Shown here: piece after piece, positions 786 to 27,714 of the stretch | Layout of the letters: every line of letters begins with the position of its first letter | Position numbering within the stretch: the first letter of the stretch is position 1 | IMG/VR virus record: IMGVR_UViG_2778261035_000014 | Length of the DNA stretch: 27,714 nt | Source: a virus | Lineage: Duplodnaviria > Heunggongvirae > Uroviricota > Caudoviricetes | Strand: one strand, 5' to 3' | The notes under the pieces: model-generated | The model's input: only the letters and a program-made list of their open reading frames with translations | What the model was told of the DNA's origin: nothing | Databases searched by the model: none | Position numbers and translations under genes: made by a program

Positions 786-832
786 TGGAGCGGGCGAAGG
801 GAATCGAAAAGGCTTGCTCTAAGCACCGGAAA
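786..832. repeat. Left att junction: 22-bp core tggagcgggcgaagggaatcga (786-807) plus 16-bp motif ctctaagcaccggaaa (817-832)
   Basis: The core is identical to 14043-14064 and the 16-mer to 13978-13993. The core's reverse complement TCGATTCCCTTCGCCCGCTCCA has a T-loop, acceptor 3' strand and CCA, matching my recollection of tRNA-Gly (glyU-type). The adjacent sequence does not fold into a full tRNA. Confidence 0.6.
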
Positions 833-4643: not shown

Positions 4644-4694
4644 ATTTTGTATCTCCATACAGTTTTTATAATCCGGCGAATATGCCGGGTTGAG

Positions 4695-9567: not shown

Positions 9568-9655
9568 TCAAGTTGTCCTCCTCGTTCTAGGTACAAAAGA
9601 CCTCCCGCCAGTGGTCGCCCAGAAGGCGAACCGGCTCAGGTTTTGTTCAGTGTTG

Positions 9656-10850: not shown

Positions 10851-10932
10851 GTGCTCGAAAATCGACTACCCCCTACTCGAAAATCGTGCAGGTAGGTGCT
10901 CGAAAATCGAGGGGGTGGGTACACGAAAATCA
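10851..10932. repeat. Iteron-like array: four ~23-bp direct repeats with core CTCGAAAATCG
   Basis: gtgctcgaaaatcg (10851), tactcgaaaatcg (10875), gtgctcgaaaatcg (10896), acacgaaaatca (10921). Spacing is 22-24 bp, about two helical turns. The spacers ctaccccct and agggggtgg are complementary. Confidence 0.55.
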
Positions 10933-12213: not shown

Positions 12214-12429
12214 GTGGAAATGAAGAAAATTTTACTATTTGTTGTGGTACTGCTGCCGCTGGCGGCTCATGCAGGAAAAATCACCATAAGCAACCCCGAC
12301 GAACAAGAATTACAGGGCGGGAAAAGGCTTTGCACTTACGAAAACAGCATTTATCTGTTTACGCTGGTGACTCGCTCGCAATCCTGCCCTTTCTCAAAAA
12401 CGTTCGATACAAATGATAATGAAAAGTGA
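12214..12429 (+). CDS. Small secreted protein with two conserved Cys (paralog of 25846-26061)
   Basis: About 70 aa with signal peptide MKKILLFVVVLLPLAAHA. Conserved blocks GKITISNPDEQ, LCTYENS.YLFT, CPFSKTFDT are shared with the element-2 paralog. Confidence 0.6.
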   Translation: MEMKKILLFVVVLLPLAAHAGKITISNPDEQELQGGKRLCTYENSIYLFTLVTRSQSCPFSKTFDTNDNEK

Positions 12430-12442
12430 AACGGAATGTCTG

Positions 12443-12931
12443 CTAATGGGGTGCTTTGCCGATCATCTCCTTAAGATCTTTGAAGCGTTCTTTGATTATT
12501 CTTCCATTCTCGGCTAAACGATTCGCTTCAAACGCAGTGAATTGAGCAATATTTTCTATTTCTTCGCGGCTGATGCTCATAAAATTCTCATCAAGCTTAG
12601 AGAGCATATTTGTGACACCTTGTCTACTTTGTGTAAAGAAACCAAGGTTATCTCTGACACCCTTAAGAAGTTCTTTCTTACCATAAGGGTTCATATTTGT
12701 ACTCGTTTCTATAGACTTGATAAGCTCTTCCGTGTCACTACATATTCCACGGTAAACCAGTTCGACCTCACGAAGCTCTTTCACTGTATCAATTTTCATT
12801 TTCCTTAATGAATCATGCTCAGCATTTTTTCTTGATCGATAGGTGTTATACAGAGCAGTTATACTGACAACAAGTGCAATGAAAGAGAATAGAGCGCTAA
12901 AAAAAGGCAGCAATTCTTTTGACATTTTCAC
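12443..12931 (-). CDS. Membrane-anchored coiled-coil protein (cargo, unknown function)
   Basis: 162 aa with a GGAG Shine-Dalgarno. N-terminal TM helix LLPFFSALFSFIALVVSITALY, then a charged helical domain. Low GC. Confidence 0.6.
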   Translation of the reverse strand: MKMSKELLPFFSALFSFIALVVSITALYNTYRSRKNAEHDSLRKMKIDTVKELREVELVYRGICSDTEELIKSIETSTNMNPYGKKELLKGVRDNLGFFTQSRQGVTNMLSKLDENFMSISREEIENIAQFTAFEANRLAENGRIIKERFKDLKEMIGKAPH

Positions 12932-12953
12932 TCCAAATTTATTAGTCTAGAAG

Positions 12954-13652
12954 TTAACTTCTAAATTTTTGAAAACAACGTCGATCAATCTCTTGTGCCA
13001 ATCTAGTCCGCATCTCTCCATAGCTTAATCTTTCCATATCTGAGGCTATTTTCCAACCACAACCTTTGAAATTACATTTAATAATAGGAAATGGGACATA
13101 GTTATAGAGATCAACGCTGGAGTGTTGGCTAAGAAGGCCTCCACATTTAGGGCATCTCATGTGAAGATTTATTAAAGAGTACCCACTATCACCTAATGCT
13201 TTAGTCCATTCCCAAGAAACTATCATTTCATAAATATTATCCGAAGTATAATGCAAAAAACTGCCCTCTTGTCCTGTAGCTTTCGCTGCAATACGACGGC
13301 GCATTACAAATCCAACAGTAGGTAAAATTGCCAATAATAAAATCGATAAAATGAGGAGCATCCATAAGGGCATTGTGACTGGGAAGGTAAGGATGTCCAT
13401 TAACCAATGGAAGAACTGCTTAATGTAATTCCATAGCCACACAACGACGGCGATCCCACTTCCTCCAGTGACAAGTGCAACGATAACGCCCGATATGCTG
13501 TCTTTGCTAAGGTCTTTCAACCATGCCATAGAAATTCTTCTTATTAAGCTATTCTTTATGCTCAATTTTACAGCGAACCAGATTTTAGGCAATAGGAGCC
13601 ATAAAGCGCCGTGATGGGTACATCCATCGATCAGCGCCTTCAGGCGTGTCAT
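12954..13652 (-). CDS. Membrane protein with C-terminal 4-Cys zinc ribbon (cargo, unknown function)
   Basis: Up to 232 aa; the start may instead be the internal ATG at 13529. Two or three hydrophobic helices, then CPKC-(x25)-CNFKGC. Sits 22 nt upstream of the 162-aa gene, so probably an operon. Confidence 0.55.
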   Translation of the reverse strand: MTRLKALIDGCTHHGALWLLLPKIWFAVKLSIKNSLIRRISMAWLKDLSKDSISGVIVALVTGGSGIAVVVWLWNYIKQFFHWLMDILTFPVTMPLWMLLILSILLLAILPTVGFVMRRRIAAKATGQEGSFLHYTSDNIYEMIVSWEWTKALGDSGYSLINLHMRCPKCGGLLSQHSSVDLYNYVPFPIIKCNFKGCGWKIASDMERLSYGEMRTRLAQEIDRRCFQKFRS

Positions 13653-13977
13653 CAGATTTTCAGCGGTAACGATCAGTGAGTCAGGTGTGCATTTTCGTAT
13701 ACACGAAACGGGGTAGAGCCTGCCGCTTTCCCGGACAGGTTAGTAATCCCATCATATCGCCTGTTTATCCCGCGCTAAGGTCGTCGTAAGCGCCGCTGTT
13801 TCAGGAATGGTTTATAGCCATAGTGAAAGGCTTTGTTTTCTTGTTGGACTATCGCGGTAAGACACTGGAACGACCGCCAGCGTTTTGATAAGCTTCCTGA
13901 TCACTACTCACCAAATCGCGGTAGTTACCAAGGTAGAACGTCGAGAGGGTTCTCAACAGCGCTTACAGAGCGCCTCC

Positions 13978-14064
13978 CTCTAAGCACCGGAAACATAAAG
14001 ATTTTTTAGCTGATTTTAAGCGTAAAAAATCGCTGGAGCGGGCGAAGGGAATCGAGGAAACCCA
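13978..14064. repeat. Inter-element att junction: 16-bp motif (13978-13993) and 22-bp core (14043-14064)
   Basis: Same two motifs as at 786-832 but in the opposite order and with 49 nt between them. Confidence 0.6.
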
Positions 14065-14140
14065 TAATAACCTGCTGTAAAATAAAGATTTTGTGATCAA
14101 TCATAGGTAACTGATTACGTGATAATAGAGGATCATTATC

Positions 14141-15361
14141 GTGTCGATCAAGAGCCAAGCATACTTATTTAAAAGAAAAGATGGGATCTGGATGTTTCAG
14201 ATTTTTGTTCCTAAATACTTACGTCATCTTTACCCTTATAAGTTGTGGAGAAAAAGCACATCTACACGAGATCTGAATGAGGCGAGAAGATTCAGAAACC
14301 ATCTATTATTAGAATGGGAGGAACTAAAGCGAAAACATAATCCTGATAACCCCGAAAGGAGGTTACAAAAAGCTATTGAATCCTTACATTCAGAGGCAAG
14401 GGCCAATAAAAACACGCAAAGAGCCGTAAAACGCGGTTATGCACCGCCTTCCCTGTGCCTAATACGTGACGAATACGCCGAATGCTACAGAGAGCGTCGT
14501 TCATACTCAACACTACAGAAATCAGCAAGGGCCGTTGAGCTATTTTTACAAAGCATTCAGAAAGATGATATTCATATTGAGAAAATAGGCAGACGGCTTG
14601 TAACAGTATTCTTAGATGACCAGAAGCAACGAGGAGCAGCCGATCAATCTCGTCAAAACTGGCTTACATGCTTAGGATCGCTCTATGAATTTGCTAAACG
14701 CCGTTATGACGGAATACCAGACAATAACCCTTTTCACGGTCATAACCTCGAAGCACGTCGCACAATCGAGAGTTATCAACCGTTTACACCTGAACAAATG
14801 CAAAAGCTACTTGATGCAGCGGAGCCGGAGATCAGAAATATTATTTTAATGGGCTTGTTTTCAGGATGCAGATTAGACGAACTGGCAAGCCTGAAAAAGT
14901 CAGAGGTTGTAACTGTGGAAGGAATACGCTGTTTTTATATCAGCAAGAGTAAGACTAAAGCAGGGATCAGACACGTTCCGATACATTCGAGACTATCGAT
15001 TATTGTCGATGAATATTTAAATCATAATTATGGTGAATATTTGTTCCCTCACTCGAACAAAGTAAAAAGAATCGACGGCAAGAAAGGCCCGTTCTATTCT
15101 CAAGCATTCTCACGTTTACGTCGTAACGTCTTGCCAATCGCTACAGATAGACAATGCTTTCACAGCTTGCGCGGGATGTTTATCACTTGTCTTGATCGTG
15201 CCGGAGTGCCTGAACAGCGGATCGGAGCCATTACCGGACATACAGAGCAGAGAGCTAAAACAGAAGCCTTTCGCACCTACTCACAAGGGGCAAGCATTCC
15301 AGAATTAGCTGAATATGTAGAATTAGTAAAATATGAATTAAATATTGATTTTAAGGCGTAA
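14141..15361 (+). CDS. int: Tyrosine-type site-specific integrase (second, diverged copy)
   Basis: 406 aa with a GTG start and AGAGGA Shine-Dalgarno. Same catalytic motifs (SGCRLDE, HSLRGMF, GHTEQ...RTYS). N-terminus differs from integrase 1. Confidence 0.9.
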   Translation: MSIKSQAYLFKRKDGIWMFQIFVPKYLRHLYPYKLWRKSTSTRDLNEARRFRNHLLLEWEELKRKHNPDNPERRLQKAIESLHSEARANKNTQRAVKRGYAPPSLCLIRDEYAECYRERRSYSTLQKSARAVELFLQSIQKDDIHIEKIGRRLVTVFLDDQKQRGAADQSRQNWLTCLGSLYEFAKRRYDGIPDNNPFHGHNLEARRTIESYQPFTPEQMQKLLDAAEPEIRNIILMGLFSGCRLDELASLKKSEVVTVEGIRCFYISKSKTKAGIRHVPIHSRLSIIVDEYLNHNYGEYLFPHSNKVKRIDGKKGPFYSQAFSRLRRNVLPIATDRQCFHSLRGMFITCLDRAGVPEQRIGAITGHTEQRAKTEAFRTYSQGASIPELAEYVELVKYELNIDFKA

Positions 15362-15468
15362 AACAACGCCATAAACGTAATAAAAAGGCTTCCTTGTAAT
15401 GGGAGCCTCTTATATGCTTAATTCCTTACAAGAGTGTTTTAGATTGTGATTAAACATTCTCTTTATCA

Positions 15469-17310
15469 TTAACTTGGTGCTTGCCCAGACAGAGCCGCCA
15501 ACGTGAAACTACGTTCAAAATCTTGTTGGATACTTCCCACTTTGTAATCGAGGTATGATCCAAGCTGACTACCATCAGGGGCGATATTCACATCCACCTT
15601 GCTTTCCGGCACGTTTACGACGATGTTCGGTGCATACGTCATAGATGGGGTAGTGTTCAGATCACGGCTAACGTTCTGTTTCAGGGATTGCACGTTATCA
15701 GATGGGCTTGCATAGTTCTGAATTGCAGTTCCGCCAGTCGTTGGCTTGTCTTCCGTGCCAGGAATAGGATCTAAGCCTAAAGCACTACGACCCCAATCAA
15801 CCATACCACCTACAAACGAGTCCTTATAATACATACCGGACGAATCAAGGTTTTCATGCTTGTTCTCTGGGTTGATATTTTGGTATGCAGCAGTAAGCCA
15901 CGATACAGCACCAGCAAAGGCGCTCATCATTTCAGCCGTTGAGCTTCCAAGTTCTTTAAACAGAGGATTCAAATCTTTCAACATTTGCGCCCACTCTTCA
16001 CCAGCTTGAGCATCGAACTCTTCACCAAATCCAGTCATGATAGCTTTCTTACTACCTTCCCATGCCATATTCATATTTGCCTGTACCGCTTGCAGACGTT
16101 CGGCAGCGTCCAGATCCGCTTGTGTATAGGTGGCATTGGCCTTTTGCATCTTAACGATGGTCTTGTTTAGCTCTTCACCATTACGACTAAAGGCACCACG
16201 GAAATATTGCAAATCATTGCCCAGGTCTTCAAGGATGTGCCCGATTTCTTGATCTGATAATCCACGGCGTTCACCTTCTTTCACTACAGCGCCCAGGAAA
16301 CCTAAAGGATCAGTCTGGAAACCTTTAACCTGTTCAGGTGACCAGCCATATTTATTAAGGATGTTATCGACGGCACCATTACCGCCAGCCCAGCGACCTT
16401 TCTTAGCGTCCCATTTGGTATTCCCTACGGATTCACCTAAACGTTCCTGAACGTCTTTAAGGTTGTCTTGACGTTGGTCTACGGAACTATCAACACCGTG
16501 TTCTAAGCCGTACTGGTTGAGAGCTAACAGGGCGTTAGTGTTTACGTTGACAGCCTTTGCCTTGCGGTTAGTGTCTGTGATCTTGCTTGCCTGATCGGTT
16601 ACGGTATTGAATATCGCAGCACCGCCGAAAGTAGCAGCAGTGAGAGCGGCACCGCCTACCATTGCACCGACACCAGCGCCCATATGACCACCTTTAAGCT
16701 GTTTAGCCATATGTGGGTATTTACCGCCATCAGCCGCCACCTGGCGAGCTTTTACAGCAGCCGCACGGCGTTCTAACGTGATACGATCACGGATCAGGTG
16801 ATTCATCTTAGCCTGACTTATAGCGCCTTTCTCATACGCTGCCGTTTGTGCTTTGATGTATTGCAATGTTTTGTAGTACTGGGCGCTGTTCATACCGTCG
16901 CCCATACGCCCTTTTTTGATGCCTTCAAGCTGGCGGAAAGCTTGCTGGCGTTTAATCTCTGCCTTCTCTGCTATTGTCGCTTTAGCGCGGATCTGTTTAT
17001 CGGCAGCTATAGCGGCTTTAGCCTTCGCTTTAGCTTCTGCCTTTGCCACCTTATCAGCGTTCTTCTTGTCTGTTTGAGCTTGCTTGTCTGACGCTTTAAC
17101 ATCAGCTTTAGCCTGTGCAGCTTTACGAGCCTTTACCAGATCATGAGCATCGTCTATAGCTTTTTTAGCCTTCTTCCCTTTCAATGTTGGATTGGTCAGG
17201 TTTTCCATTTCTTTTTGAAATTTCTTCCCTGCATCGCGTGCTTTCTGCAATGATGCAAAATCAACTTTAAATACAACCTTGTTTGTTAAGGTTGAGATGT
17301 TTAAATCCAT
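15469..17310 (-). CDS. Long coiled-coil protein with glycine-rich hydrophobic segment (tape-measure-like, function unresolved)
   Basis: 613 aa with an AAGGA Shine-Dalgarno. TolA-like KAKAEAKAKAKAAIAADKQIRAK helix, then GGHMGAGVGAMVGGAALTAATFGGAAIF. Lies downstream of the capsid and HTH genes, unlike element 1. Confidence 0.6.
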   Translation of the reverse strand: MDLNISTLTNKVVFKVDFASLQKARDAGKKFQKEMENLTNPTLKGKKAKKAIDDAHDLVKARKAAQAKADVKASDKQAQTDKKNADKVAKAEAKAKAKAAIAADKQIRAKATIAEKAEIKRQQAFRQLEGIKKGRMGDGMNSAQYYKTLQYIKAQTAAYEKGAISQAKMNHLIRDRITLERRAAAVKARQVAADGGKYPHMAKQLKGGHMGAGVGAMVGGAALTAATFGGAAIFNTVTDQASKITDTNRKAKAVNVNTNALLALNQYGLEHGVDSSVDQRQDNLKDVQERLGESVGNTKWDAKKGRWAGGNGAVDNILNKYGWSPEQVKGFQTDPLGFLGAVVKEGERRGLSDQEIGHILEDLGNDLQYFRGAFSRNGEELNKTIVKMQKANATYTQADLDAAERLQAVQANMNMAWEGSKKAIMTGFGEEFDAQAGEEWAQMLKDLNPLFKELGSSTAEMMSAFAGAVSWLTAAYQNINPENKHENLDSSGMYYKDSFVGGMVDWGRSALGLDPIPGTEDKPTTGGTAIQNYASPSDNVQSLKQNVSRDLNTTPSMTYAPNIVVNVPESKVDVNIAPDGSQLGSYLDYKVGSIQQDFERSFTLAALSGQAPS

Positions 17311-17328
17311 AATATTTTCCTTTACCTT

Positions 17329-17544
17329 TTATTTATTCTGTTTTGATACGTAATATTGCACTGCTTCCATAGCGGAACAGCCTGTAGCAAAAATTCTTTG
17401 ACGTACAGCGGTATTAGAGATCCCTAAAAACTTACATACTTGTGAGATATTTAGAATATCTTCCGGTAAGGTGGAAACAGCTTTCAGGATTTCAACGGGA
17501 TTGTTATTTTGTGTGTTCATGGTTTTCTCACTTTTATTCGACAT
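17329..17544 (-). CDS. Small helix-turn-helix DNA-binding protein
   Basis: 63-71 aa. HTH-like ILNISQVCKFLGISNTAVRQRI. C-terminus homologous to the 2938-3150 product. Confidence 0.55.
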   Translation of the reverse strand: MSNKSEKTMNTQNNNPVEILKAVSTLPEDILNISQVCKFLGISNTAVRQRIFATGCSAMEAVQYYVSKQNK

Positions 17545-17664
17545 TAGAAAACAAAAAGGGCAAAGAGATCCGTTACTGTATTTGCTTTACAGGTTAGTTA
17601 ATCCCTTTTGCCCTTATTGCCTGTTTTATTTCCAGTCGCACAGGAAACGACTATTAACGCTTTA

Positions 17665-18693
17665 TTACGCTACTGTGATCTGTACAGTGAAGCCTACGCC
17701 GTGGTTTACAACCATCTGGCTATTCTCGGTAACTACGTTTACAGCGTCGTTACGTGCTGGGCTAAATGCATAGCTGTAATATTCAGCCGATCCAGAGTTC
17801 AGAAGGTCGAACGTTGAAGAAGGAGCGCCGAAAATGTTCTGATAGACGTTAGAGCCTTTAGCGAACTTCGGAACAGCCACCGCATCAGAAGTCATATGAG
17901 CCAGCAGCAGCGGATCGGTAACTTTGATCAGATCAATGTTAGTGCCTGGAATAGTGAAGGTAGTCACACCTGGCAGCAGGGAGCGCACACTATAAACGAT
18001 GTTTGCGTCATCGGTAGGGCTTGCATACTGGAACGCGTTAACCATGCCAGCACTGTAACGGATAGCGTTAAATGCAGCAGGTTTACAGAATACAACGATA
18101 CGCTCTACAGCAGCCGCCTGGCTTTGTGCTTTAGTAATAACGTCTGTATGCATCTGATCGAATTGCTGGAACACCATAGAAGGCGTGGTGCTTGATGCGT
18201 CGATGGTTGCAGTCAGCGGAACAGCACTAAACAGATCGCCCCACTGAATCAGCACATCGTCAGTTTTAGGGGTGTAGGTGCGACCACTAAACAGGGAAGC
18301 AGCCAGTACGCTTTCTTTAGTACGCTGGAAAGCAATGTGGTGCTTAGCAACATATTCCGCGTAGATATCTGTCAGAGTCTCTTCAACGGTAGCGCCTGGT
18401 TTACGTTTGCCTTGAACGTCTTGCGGCTTAATCATATCTTCACGCAGGAAGTAGGGGATCTCTACTAAAAATTCTTTACCCTGTTCACGTTTAGTCACGT
18501 TATGTTCAGAAGAGAAACGAGAGGTTTCTTTGTTGAACAGAGATTCGTTAGTTTCCACCAGTTGGCTAACAGCCACTTTATGAGAACTCACACCTACCGG
18601 ATCAGTGAAGTCCAGAGTAGTTAACAGGAAGTTGCGAGAGTCGTGCAGACTAAACAGCGGAGCCAGATCGACGGATTCATTACCAATAATCAT
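17665..18693 (-). CDS. Major capsid protein, lambda gpE-like (second copy)
   Basis: 342 aa with an AAGGA Shine-Dalgarno. Paralogous to the 3264-4280 product and preceded by the small partner gene. Confidence 0.7.
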   Translation of the reverse strand: MIIGNESVDLAPLFSLHDSRNFLLTTLDFTDPVGVSSHKVAVSQLVETNESLFNKETSRFSSEHNVTKREQGKEFLVEIPYFLREDMIKPQDVQGKRKPGATVEETLTDIYAEYVAKHHIAFQRTKESVLAASLFSGRTYTPKTDDVLIQWGDLFSAVPLTATIDASSTTPSMVFQQFDQMHTDVITKAQSQAAAVERIVVFCKPAAFNAIRYSAGMVNAFQYASPTDDANIVYSVRSLLPGVTTFTIPGTNIDLIKVTDPLLLAHMTSDAVAVPKFAKGSNVYQNIFGAPSSTFDLLNSGSAEYYSYAFSPARNDAVNVVTENSQMVVNHGVGFTVQITVA

Positions 18694-18711
18694 TATGTTT
18701 ATTCCTTTATA

Positions 18712-19083
18712 TTAAGATGTGAATACAGTGTTAAAACCAGCCATCTGGAAGCCTTTAGCAGCCAGAGCAGCAATAGCGGCTTCTTTAATAGCGCCTTCAA
18801 CATTCAGAGCATCAGACTTGATGCAAACCAGTCCGGCATTGCTACGCAGCACGTTAACGGTTTTAGCGTCGCCAGCGGATACCGCATCAGACACAACCAC
18901 AAGAACATCGCCGCCGCTTACATATTCAGCGCCGTTACTGGTAATCAGATCGCCGCATTCCACATCAACCGCCAGATCAACGGTAAAAGATTGCACACAA
19001 CCGAACTCATCAGTTGCATAGCTCACGATATCGGTAAATGATTTGCGAACTGGAAACAGATCGCTCATATTAATAATAGCCAT
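18712..19083 (-). CDS. Putative head decoration protein (gpD-like by size and synteny)
   Basis: 123 aa, 18 nt upstream of the capsid gene. Positional and size analogue of 4299-4643. Confidence 0.45.
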   Translation of the reverse strand: MAIINMSDLFPVRKSFTDIVSYATDEFGCVQSFTVDLAVDVECGDLITSNGAEYVSGGDVLVVVSDAVSAGDAKTVNVLRSNAGLVCIKSDALNVEGAIKEAAIAALAAKGFQMAGFNTVFTS

Positions 19084-19085
19084 AA

Positions 19086-19301
19086 TTAATAGTTTCCTTT
19101 TTTGGATTGTTTGATTTGTTCTGCTTTTGCTTTAATCAGATCCTGCATAGTAGGCTTCTGTTCATCAGCAGACTTAAAAAGCTTATCACAATGTTTTTTC
19201 AATTCTGTTGGAGTGATCCCCAACATATAAGCCGTAGCATTGAATGTTTCATCAGTGATAATCAATTCTTCGTTACCATTCTTTAGAATGAGATTTTGCA
19301 T
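19086..19301 (-). CDS. Hypothetical small protein (71 aa) leading the capsid operon
   Basis: ORF ending 2 nt before the decoration-like gene. Lys/Glu-rich. No counterpart in element 1. Confidence 0.45.
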   Translation of the reverse strand: MQNLILKNGNEELIITDETFNATAYMLGITPTELKKHCDKLFKSADEQKPTMQDLIKAKAEQIKQSKKGNY

Positions 19302-19330
19302 TGTTGCTTTACCTTTTCTAACATTCTTGT

Positions 19331-19361
19331 TTAGTGCTGATAAAATAAAACCGGAAGGGGA
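19331..19361 (-). terminator. Intrinsic terminator upstream of the capsid operon
   Basis: 7-bp stem ccggaag/cttccgg (19341-19347 / 19355-19361), followed on the minus strand by TTTTATTTTA. Confidence 0.55.
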
Positions 19362-20175
19362 AAACTTCCGGCTTTATGAATACAACATTTTGAAGGATGC
19401 GATAGAAGTGTTACTAAATCGTAGTTATATGCACTTAAAGAGGATAGGACATATAAGAATAAGATTGCTTATTGTTATATACCCTTGAGGGGTGAATAAC
19501 AGGCTTACAGGGAGTAGGCGCTTAGGAGGTCGCCCCCTTTGGAGAGGAATCTATAAACCTGTTATTCGTGCGATGGCTAATCGCTGTCGTCACAATGTGG
19601 ATGCATCGATCAGACGTTCAGGAATCACCTATTAACTTTCAAACCTTTTTGGATTCTCGTTTTAATAGGAGTGGTGCCGAGATGATTTCGGGGATCATCC
19701 ACGCTTTCGCGTTCTAAGATTGGCACCTTAATAAACACCAACAAACAAAAAACGTATTCAGCTTTAGGCTTAGTAGAATTGCTGTTAAGAAACAGATATA
19801 CACCGTTATTTGTTTATACGGGGTTTATAGACACTGTAAACAGTGTTTTTAGAAAGTGTTTCATGCTTCACAGTTGGTTAAAAAGATGAGGGGCCAAGTC
19901 CATAGCCCCTGCATTCTTAAGACACAATTTTGATAAAGCAATAAGGAAAATAAAATGAAACTATTAACGAGGGAAACAATTTCTAAAAATCACTGTAAAG
20001 GGAAAGCGAGGTAGGTTAGATAGGGCGCGACCCCTTGAGGTCTACCCCGCTTTCGTGTAGGATTAAAATCTGGAGAAGGATTAACGCCAGCTAACACCTG
20101 TTTTAGATTATTTCCTCTACATTTCTTATTATATAACATTTCTGTTATAAAGTCAATAGTTAAATCAAAGTTTTT

Positions 20176-20388
20176 TCAATTCTTTTCGGTTGTTAACTGC
20201 CACTCACCAAATACGCAATTACCATCTAAAACAATTGTTTGTTCGTTACCGTTATCATCGGTTACGTGCATAAGGCGGGTGTAAGTGTCGAGTAAGCCAG
20301 TATACACTTTACCTACTGTGAAACATTGGCACGCTTTACCTTCTTCTGTAAGTGCCAGTAAACGGGCACGTTTGGTTTTTACTGTCAT
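20176..20388 (-). CDS. Hypothetical small protein (70 aa)
   Basis: ORF overlapping the upstream gene by 4 nt in a tightly packed operon. Confidence 0.5.
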   Translation of the reverse strand: MTVKTKRARLLALTEEGKACQCFTVGKVYTGLLDTYTRLMHVTDDNGNEQTIVLDGNCVFGEWQLTTEKN

Positions 20389-20693
20389 TGGTTAACCTTA
20401 TCGATTAGTTCTGCTATGAGTGGTTGCAAATCTGCTACCGCTTCTTGCATGATTTCTGTGGTGTCGTTGATGACGATGATCAGATTAGAAAGGTCGTCGG
20501 CTTCAATCATTGCACCTTCTGATTGATCACAAGCTTCAATAAGCAATTGCAGTGCTTCCCGCGTCGATTCCAGATTAATAACCGCCTGTGTAATGGTTAG
20601 CTCGCTTGGAAAGGTCAGAGCCGCGTTCACTGCTTTCTGTAAATCAATAACCAGATCCATCATTTGAATAGTTACGGTGTGAACTTCGCTCAT
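20385..20693 (-). CDS. Small highly acidic protein (102 aa)
   Basis: About 18 Asp/Glu against 3 Lys/Arg. Start overlaps the upstream stop. Confidence 0.5.
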   Translation of the reverse strand: MSEVHTVTIQMMDLVIDLQKAVNAALTFPSELTITQAVINLESTREALQLLIEACDQSEGAMIEADDLSNLIIVINDTTEIMQEAVADLQPLIAELIDKVNQ

Positions 20694-20914
20694 TATGCCA
20701 CTTCCTCTAATTGTTCTAATTGTTGTTGTGCTTCACGTGCTTTCTTCATAGCAATAGTGAGCGGGATTTTATAAGTTGCAATGTTGTCTATAATATCATC
20801 GAGTAAACCGAGATCGTTTTCTTCCTGTGCACATTCAATCAGGCTTATGAAACATTCAGAAAGAAGCTTAAGATCATGAAAAGTGGTTGTCTCTAAAATT
20901 GCTTTGTTAATCAT
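20693..20914 (-). CDS. Small acidic protein (73 aa)
   Basis: ORF in the same operon with an acidic composition. Confidence 0.5.
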   Translation of the reverse strand: MINKAILETTTFHDLKLLSECFISLIECAQEENDLGLLDDIIDNIATYKIPLTIAMKKAREAQQQLEQLEEVA

Positions 20915-20955
20915 TTTATTTTCCTTTTGTTAAGGGTTATATTCAGCAAACGCTG

Positions 20956-21336
20956 TTAATCGTCGATTTTTATTGCACTGAGCAGAAGTAATTCTGTCTC
21001 TGTCACACCTGCATATTTCAGACTGTTAAGAGCCATGTAGCCACGAAAATGATTCATATCCTGGAAGCCTAAACACTGCCATCTTTTAAGAAGACTACTA
21101 TCAATGATTGTTGTTTTACGTGGGCGCGGATTGAAGTAAACACCATCCATACTTTGAATGATTGATAATTCTTCGTCTGTCAATTCTGGGCTTGGTTCTT
21201 CAAGTATAAAGATCAATTCCTCGCCTGGTTGTGCATCATGCTCATAATTATATTTGCGAGGATTGTTTAACGCATACTGATCACATGCTTCGCCAATAGT
21301 TGTTATTACGTTTTTCTTGCCTTTTTTCTTGCTCAT
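20956..21336 (-). CDS. Hypothetical protein (126 aa)
   Basis: ORF with a Lys-rich N-terminus MSKKKGKK. Confidence 0.5.
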   Translation of the reverse strand: MSKKKGKKNVITTIGEACDQYALNNPRKYNYEHDAQPGEELIFILEEPSPELTDEELSIIQSMDGVYFNPRPRKTTIIDSSLLKRWQCLGFQDMNHFRGYMALNSLKYAGVTETELLLLSAIKIDD

Positions 21337-21464
21337 TGCTTCCCCTTCGTTTTGTTTTTCTTGTTGCAGTGTTAAAAAAGGAAGCGATCATAAATACTAA
21401 GAAAAATATTAAGCTTTCCATTGTTTCACCCTTCAAGATGTTTGATAGTTGTTTGTTGTTTGTT

Positions 21465-21683
21465 TTAAGCTACAGAGTCGATTCTGAATGCTTTCATATG
21501 AGTTTTTGTATACTGCAATAATCCTTGTTTACTTAGGTTATCGAGAAGAGCATATAAAAATTGCTCACCTACCACACCGGAAAACTCAGAATCAAACAGA
21601 ATCATTCCCGTTCTTTCCCGTAAATATTGCAGAAAGATTTCTTGTGAAAATTCGCCATCGAATATGATCACAGTGTCATCCAC
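21465..21683 (-). CDS. Hypothetical small protein (72 aa)
   Basis: ORF overlapping the upstream gene by 16 nt. Confidence 0.45.
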   Translation of the reverse strand: MDDTVIIFDGEFSQEIFLQYLRERTGMILFDSEFSGVVGEQFLYALLDNLSKQGLLQYTKTHMKAFRIDSVA

Positions 21684-21925
21684 AATTCAAACGGGTTTAC
21701 CTCGAGCAAACGGAACGTCTGACTATTCACAGCTTCATACTGAATTACCCCAAAATGGCTTAGGTGATTTAGCCAATGCTGTGTGTGTTCTTTACTGTGC
21801 GGTAACTCCTGAAAGCTGATAATCGCGGGTAGCTCATAATTGCTATCAGCGATCTGTTTTGCCAGTGTGTAGCCGCTTTCTGTAATTTCGAATGTTCGTT
21901 TGTTTAATGTCAGGTTGTATTTCAT
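21668..21925 (-). CDS. Hypothetical small protein (85 aa)
   Basis: ORF immediately downstream of the rep-like gene. Confidence 0.45.
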   Translation of the reverse strand: MKYNLTLNKRTFEITESGYTLAKQIADSNYELPAIISFQELPHSKEHTQHWLNHLSHFGVIQYEAVNSQTFRLLEVNPFELWMTL

Positions 21926-21937
21926 TTTTTATTCTCC

Positions 21938-22603
21938 TTAAAATGGTATTGAGTCATAGATTTCACTTTCTTTTCTCAGGGCTATCATCAGTGCATTAAA
22001 AGCATCATCTTCAAGAATTATCCTCTTCGAGGTCAGTGCACGTTTTATAAAATTTTCTGTTTCTTCTTGCATAGGCTTTTGGCTGTCTATGGAAATAAGC
22101 CATGTAAAAAGATCAGATTGTTCCGTGATTTCTGCCTGTGTTTCCTGCTCAATAGAGTGTGTCGCTTCTAACGGTTCCTGTGTTTCAGGTGCAGGCTGTT
22201 CTACGTTTACAGAGGTTTTTACGTCTTCCGGTGGTGTGATGTGTGCATCTGTAAATGGTAATGCTTTATAGAGTGATGTTTGCCCGTCCCGTGCCTCTAC
22301 AGAAAGAACACCCATATCAATAAACATATTTATAATATTACGCACCTGACGATCACTAACCATTCCAATATTAGCTAATGTTTTTTGATTGGCGTAACAT
22401 TCTTGCCCTTGTTCATTGAACCCAGCTACGTAACTGTAGATTTCAACGGCTGGAAGTGTCGCGGTGTATTCCTTACCTGACGGTGAGAACCACTTTTTAA
22501 ACATCTTCAGCCATTGTTCAACTACTACATATGTTTGTTTACTATCTTTCTTATTGAGGCATTGCGCTTTTGCTTCGGCAATTGTTTTGGTGTTTTGGTT
22601 CAT
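21938..22603 (-). CDS. Replication-initiator-like or winged-helix DNA-binding protein
   Basis: 221 aa. Segment ECYANQKTLANIGMVSDRQVRNIINMFIDMGVLSV. Acidic C-terminal half. AAGGAGG Shine-Dalgarno lies inside the upstream ribbon-helix-helix ORF. Confidence 0.5.
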   Translation of the reverse strand: MNQNTKTIAEAKAQCLNKKDSKQTYVVVEQWLKMFKKWFSPSGKEYTATLPAVEIYSYVAGFNEQGQECYANQKTLANIGMVSDRQVRNIINMFIDMGVLSVEARDGQTSLYKALPFTDAHITPPEDVKTSVNVEQPAPETQEPLEATHSIEQETQAEITEQSDLFTWLISIDSQKPMQEETENFIKRALTSKRIILEDDAFNALMIALRKESEIYDSIPF

Positions 22604-22727
22604 TTAGTTCCTCCTTTGTAAGGACTGTAATTAGTAATTCATTAACAAGTTTTGGAATTGATTTCCCTTCTGCCTTTGCACGATTTAACAACGCGTTATA
22701 AGTTGCAGAATCAAAATTAATATTCAT
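22551..22727 (-). CDS. Ribbon-helix-helix DNA-binding protein (58 aa, absent from the ORF track)
   Basis: Hand-translated: MNINFDSATYNALLNRAKAEGKSIPKLVNELLITVLTKEELNEPKHQNNCRSKSAMPQ. GGAGAA Shine-Dalgarno. Homologous to the 9364-9567 product. Overlaps the rep-like start in another frame. Confidence 0.5.
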   Translation of the reverse strand: MNINFDSATYNALLNRAKAEGKSIPKLVNELLITVLTKEELNEPKHQNNCRSKSAMPQ

Positions 22728-22750
22728 TTGGTTTTCTCCTTCTCCTGTTA

Positions 22751-22933
22751 TTATTCTTTCTCTGCTTCTGCCTTACGCAGTTCATCAATAATTTTTAGTG
22801 CATCGTCAAAGCATTTTTCACGCTCTGGATAACCACAGCGCCGCGCTGTGTTCCTGTTCATCCTTACTTGATGTCGTGTTAGCTCACCTTTTTTAAATGC
22901 CTCTACGACGTGTTCCGGTGTATACCATTTCAT
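22751..22933 (-). CDS. Small basic protein (60 aa), first gene of the leftward operon
   Basis: ATG at 22933 with AAGGAG Shine-Dalgarno 7 nt upstream (MKWYTPEHVVEAFKK...). Confidence 0.5.
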   Translation of the reverse strand: MKWYTPEHVVEAFKKGELTRHQVRMNRNTARRCGYPEREKCFDDALKIIDELRKAEAEKE

Positions 22934-23917
22934 AAAAAACTCCTTATTTAGATAAAAGAAAAACACACCTTGCAGCCTGACGGCTCAAAGTGCAGTGTTC
23001 TGTGATTTGATTATTTAGATGGAGAGAGATGTTTCTCCCCTCCCTACTTACAATACTACATAACGGCGGCTTTGTCAACCCTCTTTTATAAAAAATTTGA
23101 TCATTTTCAATTTCTTATAATTTTTCTTAGCTTTTTGTGCTGCCTACTCTGGTACAATTCTTCCCTGTTGCCTAAAACGCTCTCAATCGCACTCTGACGG
23201 GGTTTTGATAAAAACAATACATTCCCTTATGTAGAGGTTGTTTATCTCGTCAGAGGCTTATTTAAGGGGCTTATTTTTGATTTATCAGATGATGGAAAGA
23301 TGGTGGATAGATAAATTCTGATTTCAGACATCTTATAAAATACCTGCAAAGTTCTCAGAAGCTCTGTAACGAGCTAATCTATTACCGCTAAGGTGTTTCC
23401 CTTACATTACCCTGTTTAGCTCGCCTACGGCTTGATTTAAGCGGTAGAATCTTATTTAACCTTCAACTACAAAAACCATTCTTTCTTTTTTGTTGTTGGT
23501 TGTTTTGTCATGTTATGCGTTAGCATCCCCAAAGGGTAACGCGACACTAACAACCATTCGCTTACGCTCAGGTTATTGCACAAGTAAATTTCAATCGTTA
23601 GATGGTAGTTAGTTAATTATCGTTCTGCGCACAGCGCAAGACTATTAGCCATACGCAAGCCGTAGGCTATTTGCACATAGTAGATTACATATTCGTTGTG
23701 AGCGGAAAGCGAACATAGATCAGCTAACTACTAACAAAAAACAAAAAACAAAAACTATCTGTTATGACAAGCATCAGTCTAACTTGTGCAAGGTTCTGGC
23801 GAATGCCAATAGATTAAGGGATAGTCGAAGACTCCCTAACGGGTATCCCTATAATTATTCTTTAAAAGATAAAAGAATTTATAAAAGATAGTTTAATTGT
23901 AGTTTAATTATAGTATT

Positions 23918-23969
23918 GTAGGAACTCATTTCCTGGGTAGGTAGGAACTCATTTCCTGGGTAGGTAGGG
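23918..23969. repeat. Tandem direct repeat, 2.3 copies of 23-bp unit gtaggaactcatttcctgggtag
   Basis: Exact copies at 23918-23940 and 23941-23963, then a partial copy; preceded by duplicated agtttaatt. Confidence 0.7.
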
Positions 23970-25092
23970 AAACCGCACTATACACTGGTAAGTGTCTTGC
24001 ACAGAAAAAGGTATCAAAAATGTCTAAAGCCCCTTTAGATAAAAATGATACCTTTATACATGCGCTAATAGCGCGCATAACAATAACCTACTAACAACTA
24101 ACTAACTAAAAAGTAAGAAGATGTTGTTATGATTAGTGTATCGCTCAACGCTCACATCTATCTCTGATCTATAAATTGGTAACTGTCTAACAACAACAAA
24201 CAACTATTACATGCAAAACAGCCTTACGGCTGCATAGAGATGATTGGCTAACCTTCGGTTGCTACGCATAGCCATATCTATGAGAAGATAAAAGAGATTT
24301 AAAGGTTAGTTTGTTGTTGATCTAACCAACATTCGCTATACGCTCATACAATCTACATTACACATTAACTATCAAACTACAATCTAACGATATATAGAAT
24401 CTATATCCACTCATTATCATTCGTGCAATGATCACATTGATAGTTCGCTATACGCTCACCTCAATTATGTGCAATGGCTTTTCAGGCAACGCGTTAGCGT
24501 ATTCTTGCGAATGCCTGATCTCCAAAGCCGGAATTAAACAGCAAGAATATCTCGTGTAAATCGTAGAATATTCATAGTTTATTCCGTGTAATTCCATACT
24601 AAAAAATGCAATGAAAAGTAGCTTCAAAGTGCAATTCTTACTTTCTTCACTTTTACATTATCATCAGCAAAGCCTTATGTAATGCGGCATATAGCGTATC
24701 ACTGCAAAATTGTTGCTCAATAAATGTTCTACCATTTGTTGAACGAATGTTCACTCGTGCACATCTCAAAGAGAATAATCATTTGTCATACAATTCCATA
24801 ATAAGAATTATTATCACTTATAATGCAATACAACCCAGATTCGATACACTTTAGCAAAGTGTATTCTGTAACTTACTGATCTTTATATACTCAGGCATAT
24901 ATAGACCATTTATCGCTATTTATTGGCTATTTTTCATCTGCCGAAAATAAATTTCTTGACAAGACAAATCATTTGTGAACAACTTGCATAAAATAAATTT
25001 ACTTATAAATCAACAAGATATTTCATATTTGTGCCTGCATCAGATCGGGAGGCTTGATCTTTGTGTTCAACGATGGTGACGGACGCACCTAA

Positions 25093-25172
25093 ATTAAATC
25101 GGTTTTAATCGCCTTTAATACCTTTTAATCAGTCTTAATCACCTTTTAATAGCCCTTTAATCACTTTTGATC
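25093..25172. repeat. About eight phased ~10-bp repeats with core TTTAATC
   Basis: ggttttaatc / gcctttaata / ccttttaatc / agtcttaatc / accttttaat / agccctttaatc / acttttgatc. About 10-bp periodicity, ending 100 nt upstream of the recombinase start. Confidence 0.6.
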
Positions 25173-25273
25173 ATTTAGTGCTCTCAACCATAAAACGTAT
25201 CGTGCAACATATTGAAAATGATCGTTTTATGATCAAAACTACTTTCATTGAAACGAATAAGGAGAGTATAAAG

Positions 25274-25852
25274 ATGAAAGGTATTAGCCAAGCCCTCAAG
25301 AATGTAGACGAGGTAAAAACAGTAGCAGCAGAGCTACAGCGCAATAGTAAAACCAACCTGTTTTATTGCTTATGGGTGTTTATGTATGAAAGCGGGTTGC
25401 GTGTCTCTGACGTACTCAAGCTAAAATATCAGGATGTTGAGGGGCAATCTCATTTGAAGATAAAGCAGGAGAAAACCGGAAACGTAGTAAGGCCAAAAGT
25501 TACCCCCGCCATGTTGTCAGTGGTGGCACAACGCAAGGCAGAGCAAACGAAGATGCCTGTAGCTACAGATTTTATTTTCAGTGCTGGCACATTACGCAGT
25601 AAAGGCGAAGCCGTAACCCGTAACACGGTATTCACTGAATTTGGGAAAATGGGACGTAGAGCCGGATTCTCTAATGTGGGATGCCATACGCCACGTAAAA
25701 GTCGGGGCCGTGTGATGTTTGATGCAGGGGTAGCTATAGAGACAATAGCCCATTTCCTGGGACAGACAGATCCGCGCTCTACTATGTATTACATCGGGTA
25801 TGGTCAGGATGTGCAGGACGATTTAGCAGAGGAGTTTTCTTTAGAATGGTGA
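25274..25852 (+). CDS. Small tyrosine recombinase, FimB/FimE-like (catalytic domain only, 192 aa)
   Basis: AAGGAG Shine-Dalgarno 9 nt upstream. Motifs ESGLRVSDV (Arg), HTPRKSRG (His-x-x-Arg), and C-terminal LGQTDPRSTMYY (Tyr). Size and motif spacing resemble my recollection of FimB. Stop overlaps the next start in ATGGTGA. Confidence 0.65.
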   Translation: MKGISQALKNVDEVKTVAAELQRNSKTNLFYCLWVFMYESGLRVSDVLKLKYQDVEGQSHLKIKQEKTGNVVRPKVTPAMLSVVAQRKAEQTKMPVATDFIFSAGTLRSKGEAVTRNTVFTEFGKMGRRAGFSNVGCHTPRKSRGRVMFDAGVAIETIAHFLGQTDPRSTMYYIGYGQDVQDDLAEEFSLEW

Positions 25853-26061
25853 TCCAAATTAAAAGCTTATTTGTGCTGACGTTGGCGCTATTGCCTGTCC
25901 TATCGAATGCCGGACAGATAACAATGGTCAACCCACAGGAAGAACAGACGGAGAATGGAAAAACGCTGTGCACGTATCAGAACAGCAATTATCTGTTCAC
26001 TTACGTAACTAAGGGGAAATGCCCTTATACAAAAACATTTGACACTTCCGCCAAAGAATAA
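25846..26061 (+). CDS. Small secreted protein with two conserved Cys (paralog of 12214-12429)
   Basis: 71 aa with signal peptide MVIQIKSLFVLTLALLPVLSNA. Conserved blocks GQITMVNPQEE, LCTYQNSNYLFT, CPYTKTFDT. Confidence 0.6.
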   Translation: MVIQIKSLFVLTLALLPVLSNAGQITMVNPQEEQTENGKTLCTYQNSNYLFTYVTKGKCPYTKTFDTSAKE

Positions 26062-26066
26062 CGATT

Positions 26067-26486
26067 TTAACGGGATTTTGGATAAATGCTGTTTCTGCAA
26101 TTAATGCAATACCAACTCGCGGAGTATTGACCAACGGCACGCGAAAAAACCATGTGTGTTTGCACCTTATCAACTTCAAAGCATTTGGGACAGTAGGCTG
26201 TTTCATCGCCTTCTTTCCAGTAAAGTCCATCTTTGAAAGTGAAGGTGTGCTTATCCTTTAGCTGATCTTCAAGCTGCTTATTTTTCTGTTCAGCCTCAAA
26301 AAGAAGTGCTTGGGTTGTGATTACTTCCATCTTCACACTTGCAAGTTCGCTCATGAGGTTAGCAAGCTCAAGTTTAAGCGTTGCTTTATCAAGTTCGCCG
26401 CCATCATCAGCGAGCTTCTTTGCAATACCTACAGCTTTGTCAATGATACCTACAGCCGCCGCTGTACTTGCCAACACTCCAGACAT
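26067..26486 (-). CDS. Coiled-coil protein with C-terminal zinc ribbon (cargo, unknown function)
   Basis: 139 aa. Central heptad-like region, then CPKC-(x24)-CINC. Last gene of the leftward three-gene operon. Confidence 0.55.
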   Translation of the reverse strand: MSGVLASTAAAVGIIDKAVGIAKKLADDGGELDKATLKLELANLMSELASVKMEVITTQALLFEAEQKNKQLEDQLKDKHTFTFKDGLYWKEGDETAYCPKCFEVDKVQTHMVFSRAVGQYSASWYCINCRNSIYPKSR

Positions 26487-26508
26487 ATTGCCCCTAATTT
26501 TAACAAGT

Positions 26509-27144
26509 TCACTTTATAAAAGCTAAAGCCCTAAGAACGGTTTTTAACCGCGTTACCTGCTCAGGCTTTTCAAGTTCATCCAAATTAACATTAATTTTAT
26601 CTAAACAGATGGCTATACGTGACATAACCTCGCCATGAATCTGCTTCAAACCTTCGCCATATTGAGTGGCAATATGGTAAGTCTGTTCTAAATTAAAACG
26701 ATGGATATCTTTCTGCGTTTCATGAAATATGGTTTGAAGTTTAGCTAAGTCCTCTAAAACCTGATTATTCATTCTGAAAGTATCAACCAGACTCCTTGCT
26801 GAGCCATAACAAATAACAATTGCCTTCATTGTCTCTTCATTAACAGAAGTTAATGCGAAAGAGTTGCTTTCATAGAATGAGAAATAATTTTGAGTCAACG
26901 GAAAGATGCTTTCAAAAGGTTTACCACCTTCATAATTTTCAAGAGAATCGTAAATTCTGGCTTTATAAAGTTCCAGAAGCGTTTCGACTTCTGCTTTTAT
27001 TCCAATCAAGACACTCTTTTGCTTATCCTTTGCTTCATTAAATGAAGCTCTGTCTTGCCTACGTCCATCGATCAGAGTACCCCACAGGGTGAACAATCCC
27101 CCTATCAAGGCACCAACTAAACCAGAAATCAGTTCACTTCCCAT
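26509..27144 (-). CDS. Membrane-anchored protein (cargo, unknown function)
   Basis: About 211 aa from the ATG at 27144 (ORF-track start is TTG at 27159). N-terminal TM helix ELISGLVGALIGGLFTLWGTLI. Begins 16 nt after the upstream stop. Confidence 0.55.
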   Translation of the reverse strand: MGSELISGLVGALIGGLFTLWGTLIDGRRQDRASFNEAKDKQKSVLIGIKAEVETLLELYKARIYDSLENYEGGKPFESIFPLTQNYFSFYESNSFALTSVNEETMKAIVICYGSARSLVDTFRMNNQVLEDLAKLQTIFHETQKDIHRFNLEQTYHIATQYGEGLKQIHGEVMSRIAICLDKINVNLDELEKPEQVTRLKTVLRALAFIK

Positions 27145-27159
27145 GTTGCCCCCTAACAA

Positions 27160-27714
27160 TCATTTTTGACAGCAATGATCCCATTGCTCAGTAGTCCTTG
27201 CAACTCGATCACTGATTGCAAAGTTATTCAGCAACGAATCATAAGCGTACACTTTGCTTTTATCATCTGCTGTCATCAACTTACCATCAGGTTTCAACTT
27301 TGGCGAAAGCAAGTATGTACCGTTTAAACGGTTAGCTTTGAAGCTATCAACATGCAACGTTACTTCAGCACTTCCCAGCACACGTAAAGAACCTATTCTG
27401 CCATTCTTTATTGTTGCTATCGAATACTGACATAGATAAGTTTTCACAATTGAAGCTGCGTTTTTTTCGGCAATCTTCGCTGATGGAGAATCCAAAGAGG
27501 ATTTGGGGATTGAACTATGAAGAGAAGATGACGGATAAGAGTAATGTTGATAAGTAGAAGATGAGCGCGAACTACCTCCACATGTTTTCCATGCCGCAAT
27601 ACACGAATTACCACACGGTATACCTTTCTTGCAATTCTTCGCGTATGCAGAGAACGACAACCCAGCTAATAGAAATATACCAATGGTTATCCTAACCAGC
27701 GAAGACCAACCCAT
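27160..27714 (-). CDS. Secreted Cys-rich and Ser-rich protein (cargo, unknown function)
   Basis: 184 aa with the ATG exactly at the window edge. Signal peptide with AYA cleavage site, then CKKGIPCGNSCIAAWKTCGG, a Ser-rich linker, and a C-terminal domain. Confidence 0.5.
   Translation of the reverse strand: MGWSSLVRITIGIFLLAGLSFSAYAKNCKKGIPCGNSCIAAWKTCGGSSRSSSTYQHYSYPSSSLHSSIPKSSLDSPSAKIAEKNAASIVKTYLCQYSIATIKNGRIGSLRVLGSAEVTLHVDSFKANRLNGTYLLSPKLKPDGKLMTADDKSKVYAYDSLLNNFAISDRVARTTEQWDHCCQK

Follow-up and report, generated by a model that had tools for sequence, protein, structure and literature searches.

P2/P4 phages and satellites reportedly carry defence hotspots (Rousset et al. 2022). Here, a comparable arrangement is described in Escherichia coli chromosomal DNA, in a stretch of 27,714 nucleotides (nt) held as IMG/VR virus record IMGVR_UViG_2778261035_000014 and referred to, at its full length, as the window. 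The subject is a trio of neighbouring genes at the tRNA-proximal end of the second of two tandem integrative elements (element 2, ∼14 kb), namely sec184, TM211 and ZnR139, which are predicted to encode a secreted Cys-rich protein, a protein with a transmembrane (TM) helix and a helical protein with a CxxC...CxxC zinc ribbon, respectively. Other known systems also bear on this locus. SieB (PF14163) is the superinfection exclusion protein B of lambdoid phages, and PDC-S67 is a PADLOC phage-defence candidate that is not known to have been tested experimentally. PD-T7-4, now renamed RAZR, has been shown experimentally to be a single-protein abortive-infection RNase (PMC13017515; PMC9519451), which combines a zinc finger with a HEPN/DUF4145 domain and functions alone (PMC13017515).

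Judged by analogy, the locus operates in the manner of the P2/P4 hotspots, on a different carrier. As in those hotspots, a phage-related integrative element has one fixed site where highly variable cargo lies between conserved flanks, and some copies carry validated defence genes. The carrier differs in being neither P2 nor P4: it has no P4 alpha, sid or psu genes and possesses a lambda-E-like capsid gene, a tape-measure-like protein, an O/DnaD-like initiator and an extra small tyrosine recombinase. The slot is also different in that its first gene, with a predicted promoter of its own, is a conserved one for a secreted protein.

A variable cargo slot with separable residents

Of 5,426 complete E. 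coli genomes searched with the recombinase-to-cargo stretch, 54 matched. The slot is bordered by the small tyrosine recombinase and the secreted-protein gene sec71 on one side and by the attachment (att) site and tRNA gene on the other, and at least seven cargo variants were found in it. In E. coli, the window type (sec184-TM211-ZnR139) was present in 15 genomes, a 206-amino-acid (aa) DUF4145 protein followed by a 97% identical ZnR139 in 14, sec188 with a 165-aa secreted protein, a 200-aa TM protein and ZnR134 in eight, sec188 with the 165-aa protein and ZnR143 in five, and two small unknown genes in six genomes of the UPEC132 type. Also observed in E. coli were copies that insertion sequences had disrupted or truncated, among them a lone sec184. 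Further cargo was seen in sister elements of other genera or at other tRNA sites: sec189 with a SieB family gene and a further gene (x) in E. ludwigii and, at tRNA-Leu, in E. coli E203449; sec186 with the 165-aa protein and DUF3761 in the E. cloacae complex; sec184 with TM192 and no ZnR in K. aerogenes; and ZnR136 with a YecR lipoprotein gene at tRNA-Thr.

The 206-aa DUF4145 protein matched the PADLOC model for PD-T7-4 (RAZR) with an E value of 6e-90, and the 200-aa TM protein matched that for PDC-S67 with an E value of 4e-27. In addition to the eight genomes, PDC-S67 and ZnR were found between the same flanks in one IMG/VR contig. This slot is genuinely a variable hotspot, and known defence genes are among its contents. 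A variable slot with the properties of a defence hotspot had been proposed in the original prediction, which was to be doubted should the cargo prove the same across related elements; the comparison bears the proposal out, the cargo differing among relatives and RAZR, the SieB family and PDC-S67 all occurring there. Because the slot is demonstrably an anti-phage hotspot, there are good grounds for regarding those residents that are uncharacterised as candidate new immunity genes. For the three window genes themselves, it is location in the slot that suggests a defence role by analogy, and it is location together with architecture that leads us to propose anti-phage activity and mechanism below.

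Separability of the three genes was assessed by tblastn and profile hidden Markov model (HMM) scans of every fetched locus. Copies of the trio are 97.6–100% identical in the 15 E. coli genomes; outside these near-identical copies the full trio was not seen in any examined locus, and every pair and every single gene of the trio occurs elsewhere. sec184 was found alone, with the 165-aa protein, DUF3761 or SieB, or with TM211 only. Relatives of TM211 without ZnR or sec184 were present in Cronobacter, Pantoea, Enterobacter, Budvicia, Photobacterium, Chimaeribacter, a Thiotrichales genome, Burkholderiales metagenome-assembled genomes and a further element (L035), and the K. aerogenes relative is without ZnR. 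A TM211 homologue (40% identity) also stands alone on 34 plasmids. The listed records are non-mobilizable plasmids of ∼105–125 kb from Enterobacter, Citrobacter and Salmonella, and the one inspected (E. hormaechei pEh22_1, L057) was typed as IncFIB. This size and typing recall SSU5-like phage-plasmids, which they may be.

Relatives of ZnR139 were found downstream of RAZR, both in E. coli and in K. oxytoca (three different neighbourhoods), downstream of a 177-aa protein next to DarTG in Serratia, of PDC-S67 or of the 165-aa protein, or alone beside the recombinase, and a distant stand-alone copy was found in a phage contig. Searches of GenBank phages with TM211 and ZnR139 by tblastn gave no match. 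ZnR as an obligate partner of RAZR was considered and rejected, as the two further DUF4145 loci that were inspected had no ZnR homologue and RAZR works alone (PMC13017515). The distribution argues for three separable cassettes and does not support one fixed three-gene system. The original prediction had described a three-gene operon, the reading of which as one system is at odds with the finding of its genes apart from one another in many lineages; examination of gene neighbourhoods, which had been suggested as a check, revealed that each gene is conserved, but that partners vary and that, in the loci examined, full trios occur only as near-identical copies in E. coli.

We consider it somewhat better than an even chance (roughly 55%) that the trio is an accessory cargo mosaic of separable cassettes in a recombination hotspot of a satellite-like element, the cassettes being candidates for abortive infection or exclusion. 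They would be read from one promoter as separable units at a tRNA-proximal hotspot. The finding represents a well-supported lead and no conceptual surprise.

A distant match to a DUF4145 (RAZR-like) gene was obtained in ∼290 E. coli genomes, of which a spread sample aligned over the DUF4145 gene only. The two such loci that were inspected (AR216.2b, L038; DETEC-P829, L039) are a different small islet at glyU with no ZnR homologue. In both, the DUF4145 gene abuts or overlaps the 3' end of a ∼530-aa integrase gene, in agreement with the frequent overlap of PD-T7-4 with an integrase gene remarked on by Vassallo et al.

The TM211 and ZnR139 families

TM211 contains a single hydrophobic segment at residues 5–25. 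A profile search of 1.84 billion representative proteins yielded 1,107 matches with E values up to 1e-3 and 588 with values up to 1e-10, almost all of them 190–220 aa in length and aligned from end to end; a scan of the genome collection with a narrower TM211 alignment gave 10 loci. No family in Pfam, PADLOC or PHROGs was matched by 67 sampled members. By these searches the TM211 family, comprising ∼1,100 clusters, is without annotation in Pfam, PADLOC, PHROGs and NCBIfam, and a defence activity of TM211, if true, would annotate all of it. The proportion of nonsynonymous differences (pN, 0.24–0.35) was far below that of synonymous differences (pS), which was saturated.

The AlphaFold2 (AF2) model of TM211, with a predicted local distance difference test score (pLDDT) of 82.9 and a predicted template modelling score of 0.70, consists of a long N-terminal helix that carries the TM segment, followed by a four-helix bundle. 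Inspection of 67 aligned sequences revealed near-invariant polar residues (E52, Y60, N94, D121, N126, N127, Y162 and H170), which suggests a specific binding or active site. Given that some members of the family carry a signal peptide and a periplasmic extension ahead of the TM helix, the bundle is predicted to face the cytoplasm. In the proposed scheme, TM211 is the exchangeable middle cassette and would act as a single-protein abortive-infection or superinfection-exclusion factor. The bundle would sense an infection cue and the Gly-rich TM helix would perturb the membrane, this being the only plausible output.

Two residents of the slot resemble TM211 in position. SieB is, like TM211, a small membrane-anchored protein of a mobile element, and in E. 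ludwigii and E. coli E203449 its gene follows a sec184 homologue, in the same middle position; PF14163 gave no hit at E ≤ 1 to TM211, ZnR139, sec184 or the cargo proteins of element 1. PDC-S67 is a protein of ∼200 aa with an N-terminal Gly-rich TM helix that occupies the position of TM211, directly upstream of a ZnR139 homologue. However, only its TM segment aligns with TM211, and the cytoplasmic domains are unrelated. Comparison of the TM211 family with PDC-S67 by hhalign covered 26 columns, and the A3 profile HMM (67 proteins) gave an E value of 0.005. Remote homology of the two was rejected, there being no PADLOC hit for TM211 and 66 further members and the hhalign alignment being limited to the TM helix.

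Distant TM211-family genes have among their neighbours a 172-aa protein carrying the HEPN-like motif RNKFAHR and, directly downstream, Cys-rich zinc-ribbon-like proteins of ∼250 aa (L048 1635–2153; L052 5552–6316; L006 6712–7446). These neighbours hint at defence-island contexts.

In ZnR139, Cys99, Cys102, Cys127 and Cys130 were invariant in 52 homologues, as were E104, H111 and W125. The pattern of a Cys4 zinc ribbon with two CxxC motifs is therefore present across the family, and metal binding is predicted. Residues 1–98 hardly vary between E. coli and genera such as Pantoea and Serratia, the mean pairwise identity being 0.74; after the first CxxC this value is 0.32, and the length between the knuckles varies. 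The N-terminus and helical region (residues 1–95) is hydrophobic or amphipathic as well as near-invariant, and the ratio of nonsynonymous to synonymous substitution rates (dN/dS) over the first 95 codons was 0.03–0.17, the value of 0.17 being obtained with the near-identical copy of E. coli 08-00022. In the comparison with E. coli A35, N-terminal dS was 0.43 while C-terminal pS was saturated, which indicates that the C-terminus has changed by module exchange and not by gradual drift. The protein has no export signal and matched phrog_1244 (E value of 8e-7).

A heptad test gave p ∼0.03 for residues 30–60 and was not significant elsewhere, so that a coiled coil in ZnR139 is weakly supported. The original prediction had divided a TM anchor, a coiled coil and a zinc ribbon among separate proteins and added a secreted Cys-rich one; the TM segment, the Cys4 ribbon and the secreted protein are upheld, the coiled coil less so.

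In sister elements, this slot holds RAZR immediately ahead of the 97% identical ZnR139, and RAZR likewise has a Cys4 zinc ribbon. The window proteins differ from RAZR in having neither DUF4145/HEPN nor detectable similarity, and here the ribbon is on a separate 139-aa protein. With respect to the PD-T7-4 model (DUF4145/HEPN, R-x4-6-H), none of the three window proteins had a PADLOC or Pfam hit, and hhalign of the ZnR family against RAZR returned a probability of 0.7%. ZnR139 is proposed to be an autonomous small protein, the N-terminal helical part of which would serve in oligomerisation or in contact with a partner or the membrane. The fast-changing ribbon insert would recognise a variable target, probably phage-derived, and ZnR139 may cooperate with TM211. 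The presence of ZnR139 beside RAZR, PDC-S67 and TM211, together with its fast-varying insert, could reveal a shared recognition module.

TM211 precedes ZnR139 in E. coli with a gap of 22 nt. In Klebsiella the same order is found with a 35-nt gap, the two proteins being 30% and 34% identical to the window copies; this pair is found on the opposite side of the small recombinase, within an element of this kind. In Biostraticola, a ZnR gene (65% identical to the Klebsiella type) is found 198 nt upstream of a TM gene (54% identical to the window type). Since the relationships of the three arrangements are non-congruent, they argue for repeated association of TM211 and ZnR and not for simple co-descent. 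Such association would be expected if the two formed a module, with ZnR139 as a zinc-ribbon sensor or regulator, TM211 as the membrane effector and sec184 as an unrelated leader, and the closest ZnR relatives do lie directly downstream of another TM protein, PDC-S67. We hold this to be unlikely: at least 13 TM211-family loci are without ZnR, the adjacent pairs share an island type, strong purifying selection acts on ZnR where it adjoins RAZR, a protein that functions by itself, and ZnR stands alone next to the recombinase and in the phage contig.

A bolder version, to which we would attach only a small probability, makes ZnR139 a portable sensor or adaptor. Its N-terminus would plug into the TM211 family, PDC-S67, RAZR and the 177-aa protein of Serratia, and its ribbon insert would set phage specificity; TM211 with ZnR139 would then be the first example of a new kind of membrane abortive-infection system with two components, and the TM211 family would be a defence family that is both widespread and overlooked.

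sec184 and the layout of the three genes

Hydropathy and Cys scans of sec184 revealed a hydrophobic stretch at residues 1–25 ending in AYA|K and seven Cys residues. The protein is laid out as a predicted signal peptide (residues 1–25), a Cys motif, a Ser-rich linker and a beta-rich C-terminal domain, the last matching phrog_2578 and phrog_14768 (E value of 1e-15). In an alignment of 27 homologues, AKNCKKGIPCGNSCIAxxKTC was invariant right after the signal peptide. Comparison with orthologues from other genera gave dN/dS values of 0.15–0.19. As the DNA upstream of sec184, with TGgTATCAT ∼30 nt before the ATG, is kept across genera, sec184 is probably the promoter-bearing leader of the slot. It is widely conserved and is predicted to be exported to the periplasm, possibly as an envelope or exclusion moron.

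The four-Cys motif AKNC(K/R)KG(I/Q)PCGNSCI..KTC (window 27577–27639, residues 26–46 of sec184) also follows the signal peptide in secreted mobile-element proteins with differing C-terminal domains. In the P2-like Pseudoalteromonas phage C5a, it stands at the head of a secreted SH3_3 protein (L023 2495–2920), the gene for which lies between replication/methylase genes and the portal gene. The motif had no match among PDB sequences, and sec184 matched no Pfam family.

The trio might instead comprise morons of the lysogenic-conversion type, with an effect on the envelope or periplasm or some other benefit to the host, and without a role in phage defence. In keeping with this, sec184 is predicted to be exported, the 165-aa protein, DUF3761 and YecR residents of the slot are secreted proteins or lipoproteins, gtrA/gtrB-like genes lie nearby in one relative, and the C-terminal domain of sec184 was also observed in the moron region of a Klebsiella prophage. 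We nevertheless regard this explanation as distinctly improbable, given that RAZR, SieB and PDC-S67 share the slot, that the conserved domain of TM211 is apparently cytoplasmic and ZnR139 is without an export signal, and that the hypervariable ZnR insert resembles arms-race variation.

All three same-strand open reading frames (ORFs) were found where the original prediction had placed them (Table 1). The gaps between them are 15 nt (sec184 to TM211) and 22 nt (TM211 to ZnR139), a G-rich ribosome-binding site precedes each of the three start codons, and no terminator-like site was found on the coding strand of the trio; co-transcription is therefore plausible. TM211 starts at an ATG preceded by an AGGGGG ribosome-binding site, in agreement with the RefSeq annotation of the identical SCU-102 locus, and the TTG at 27159 given by the ORF tool is merely the earliest possible start. 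The close convergence of ZnR139 with sec71 that had been noted earlier holds, the two stop codons being 5 nt apart. The window ends exactly at the ATG of sec184, and the promoter had been expected beyond it; this is borne out by the SCU-102 locus (L001), which holds a ribosome-binding site and the conserved TGgTATCAT element upstream of sec184.

Homologues fell into 65 clusters for sec184, 116 for ZnR139 and 20 for TM211, all from Enterobacterales and all annotated as hypothetical. By these measures the three genes are more than chance ORFs and are conserved across Enterobacterales under purifying selection. Scans of PHROGs with the three proteins matched only PHROGs of no known function, searches of PDB sequences with the family profiles and the Cys motif gave no match, and the TniQ model (PF06527) scored 15–16 bits, below its gathering threshold of 27, so that none of the three qualifies. 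The remote homology searches that had been recommended thus matched no known characterised family, and literature searches for the protein accessions and for PDC-S67 gave nothing relevant.

This layout would also suit one three-component defence system with interdependent parts, namely a secreted component, a membrane anchor and a zinc-ribbon sensor. The genes are tightly spaced on one strand behind a single upstream promoter, the full set is kept in the 15 E. coli genomes, and the junction of sec184 with TM211 is conserved in K. aerogenes and represented by adjacent locus tags in C. koseri. That no further full set was seen in the examined loci, and that all partial combinations occur, makes such interdependence very unlikely.

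Several observations weigh against reading the trio as a mosaic of separable candidate defence cassettes. TM211 and ZnR are adjacent in 3 of ∼17 lineages examined, which could reflect shared residence in the same type of island. The secreted proteins and lipoproteins among the slot residents fit envelope morons as well as defence, and none of the three window proteins matched a family in Pfam, PADLOC or NCBIfam. The AF2 model of sec184 has a pLDDT of 43 and no usable fold, and a fold search with TM211 returned generic helical bundles only, which is uninformative on activity. The TM segment of TM211 is marginal by Kyte-Doolittle hydropathy (1.67), and the features of ZnR139 are predicted from its sequence.

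The carrier element and the cargo of element 1

A 22-nt att repeat, TGGAGCGGGCGAAGGGAATCGA, has exactly the sequence of the 3' end of tRNA-Gly (glyU). The repeat is present at two positions in the window (Table 1) and a third time within tRNA-Gly, ∼510 nt past the window end, as seen in the identical SCU-102 locus (L001 15126–15147). Retrieval of this flanking sequence, which had been advised in order to complete the operon and att, therefore yielded both the upstream DNA and the third copy. Given these positions of the repeat, the window holds two tandem integrative elements of ∼13–14 kb each at glyU, from 786 to 14055 and from 14034 to 27714 with a further ∼530 nt past the window. In SCU-102, element 2 is present alone between a GH15 gene and glyU.

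Table 1. Positions of the genes and att repeats of the window, counted from its first letter.
Feature	Coordinates	Strand	Description
sec184	27160..27714	minus	184 aa; secreted Cys-rich protein; first gene after the att-proximal non-coding region
TM211	26509..27144	minus	211 aa from ATG; one N-terminal TM helix
ZnR139	26067..26486	minus	139 aa; helical, with CxxC...CxxC
sec71	25846..26061	plus	71-aa secreted protein; conserved slot flank; phrog_4641, E 1e-7
Small tyrosine recombinase	25274..25852	plus	Pfam Phage_integrase, E 1e-15; phrog_216, E 6e-29
Element-1 cargo	12443..13652	minus	232-aa and 162-aa proteins in the equivalent slot
sec71 paralogue of element 1	12214..12429	plus	48% identity; convergent with the element-1 cargo
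att core, left end of element 1	786..807	plus	22-nt repeat
att core, junction of elements 1 and 2	14034..14055	plus	22-nt repeat; identical to the tRNA-Gly 3' end

Each element encodes an integrase (404 and 406 aa, with 60% mutual identity), a lambda-E-like major capsid protein with a small gene of ∼120 aa upstream of it, an O/DnaD-like initiator and a tape-measure-like protein (781 and 613 aa). In element 2, the integrase is the 406-aa protein, the 613-aa protein matched a tape-measure PHROG (E value of 6e-67) and the major head protein matched phrog_29, relatives of it matching Pfam Phage_cap_E. No terminase or portal gene was noticed in either element, no search aimed at them having been made. 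From its gene content, element 2 encodes a capsid and resembles a phage satellite. Related elements use tRNA-Thr and tRNA-Leu sites, and a literature search found no description of this type of satellite or element. With its capsid gene, tape-measure-like gene and small recombinase, its tandem arrangement at glyU and its use of several tRNA sites, the carrier may be a satellite type without earlier description.

The small tyrosine recombinase is a protein of ∼190 aa that consists of a catalytic domain only; its start is at 25274 in RefSeq and at 25178 in the longest ORF. It adjoins the variable slot in nearly all element variants. An integron-like mechanism, in which this recombinase would act on a cassette array, was considered and found no support, because the cassettes lack flanking attC-like or inverted repeats. 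We give little credence to a role of ZnR139, and perhaps of its neighbours, in the life cycle of the element, as a directionality or regulatory factor for the small recombinase or in helper-phage interference, since ZnR, although it adjoins and converges with the recombinase gene in several variants and overlaps its 3' end in XYEH3934 and IMG/VR L055, is present in Serratia chromosomes and in K. oxytoca islands with no recombinase or element around it and is missing from the UPEC132, E. cloacae type and element 1 copies.

The cargo of element 1 lies in the equivalent slot. Its 232-aa protein has two or three TM segments and a CPKC...CNFKGC motif (CxxC...CxxxxC), its 162-aa protein has an N-terminal TM helix and is otherwise helical, and neither matched a family in Pfam, PADLOC or NCBIfam. 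Profile comparisons detected no homology between the two cargoes, as had been predicted; on the same grounds, the ZnR ribbon was linked by homology neither to the zinc finger of RAZR nor to the ribbon of the 232-aa protein, and TM211 was not linked to the 162-aa protein. The accompanying proposal that element 2 carries the same parts in a new arrangement is not supported, a TM segment, helices and a Cys4 ribbon being generic features without detectable homology. The element-1 proteins are further residents of the hotspot and, as such, candidates for defence.

A second cargo slot may exist in these elements, because in four Klebsiella relatives (L040–L043) the TM211-like/ZnR-like pair occupies the interval between the small recombinase and replication/regulatory genes that corresponds in position to ∼22930–25270 of the window. 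This stretch of ∼2.3 kb is AT-rich (G+C fraction of 0.33–0.37), is without a convincing ORF and contains many direct repeats and palindromes, including a 23-nt tandem repeat at 23918–23963. It looks like an origin or regulatory region. Just past the window end, ∼80 nt inside att, a 22-nt segment of the element (L001 15025–15046) is 82% complementary to the 5' part of tRNA-Gly (15176–15197) and forms an inverted repeat with the tRNA gene.

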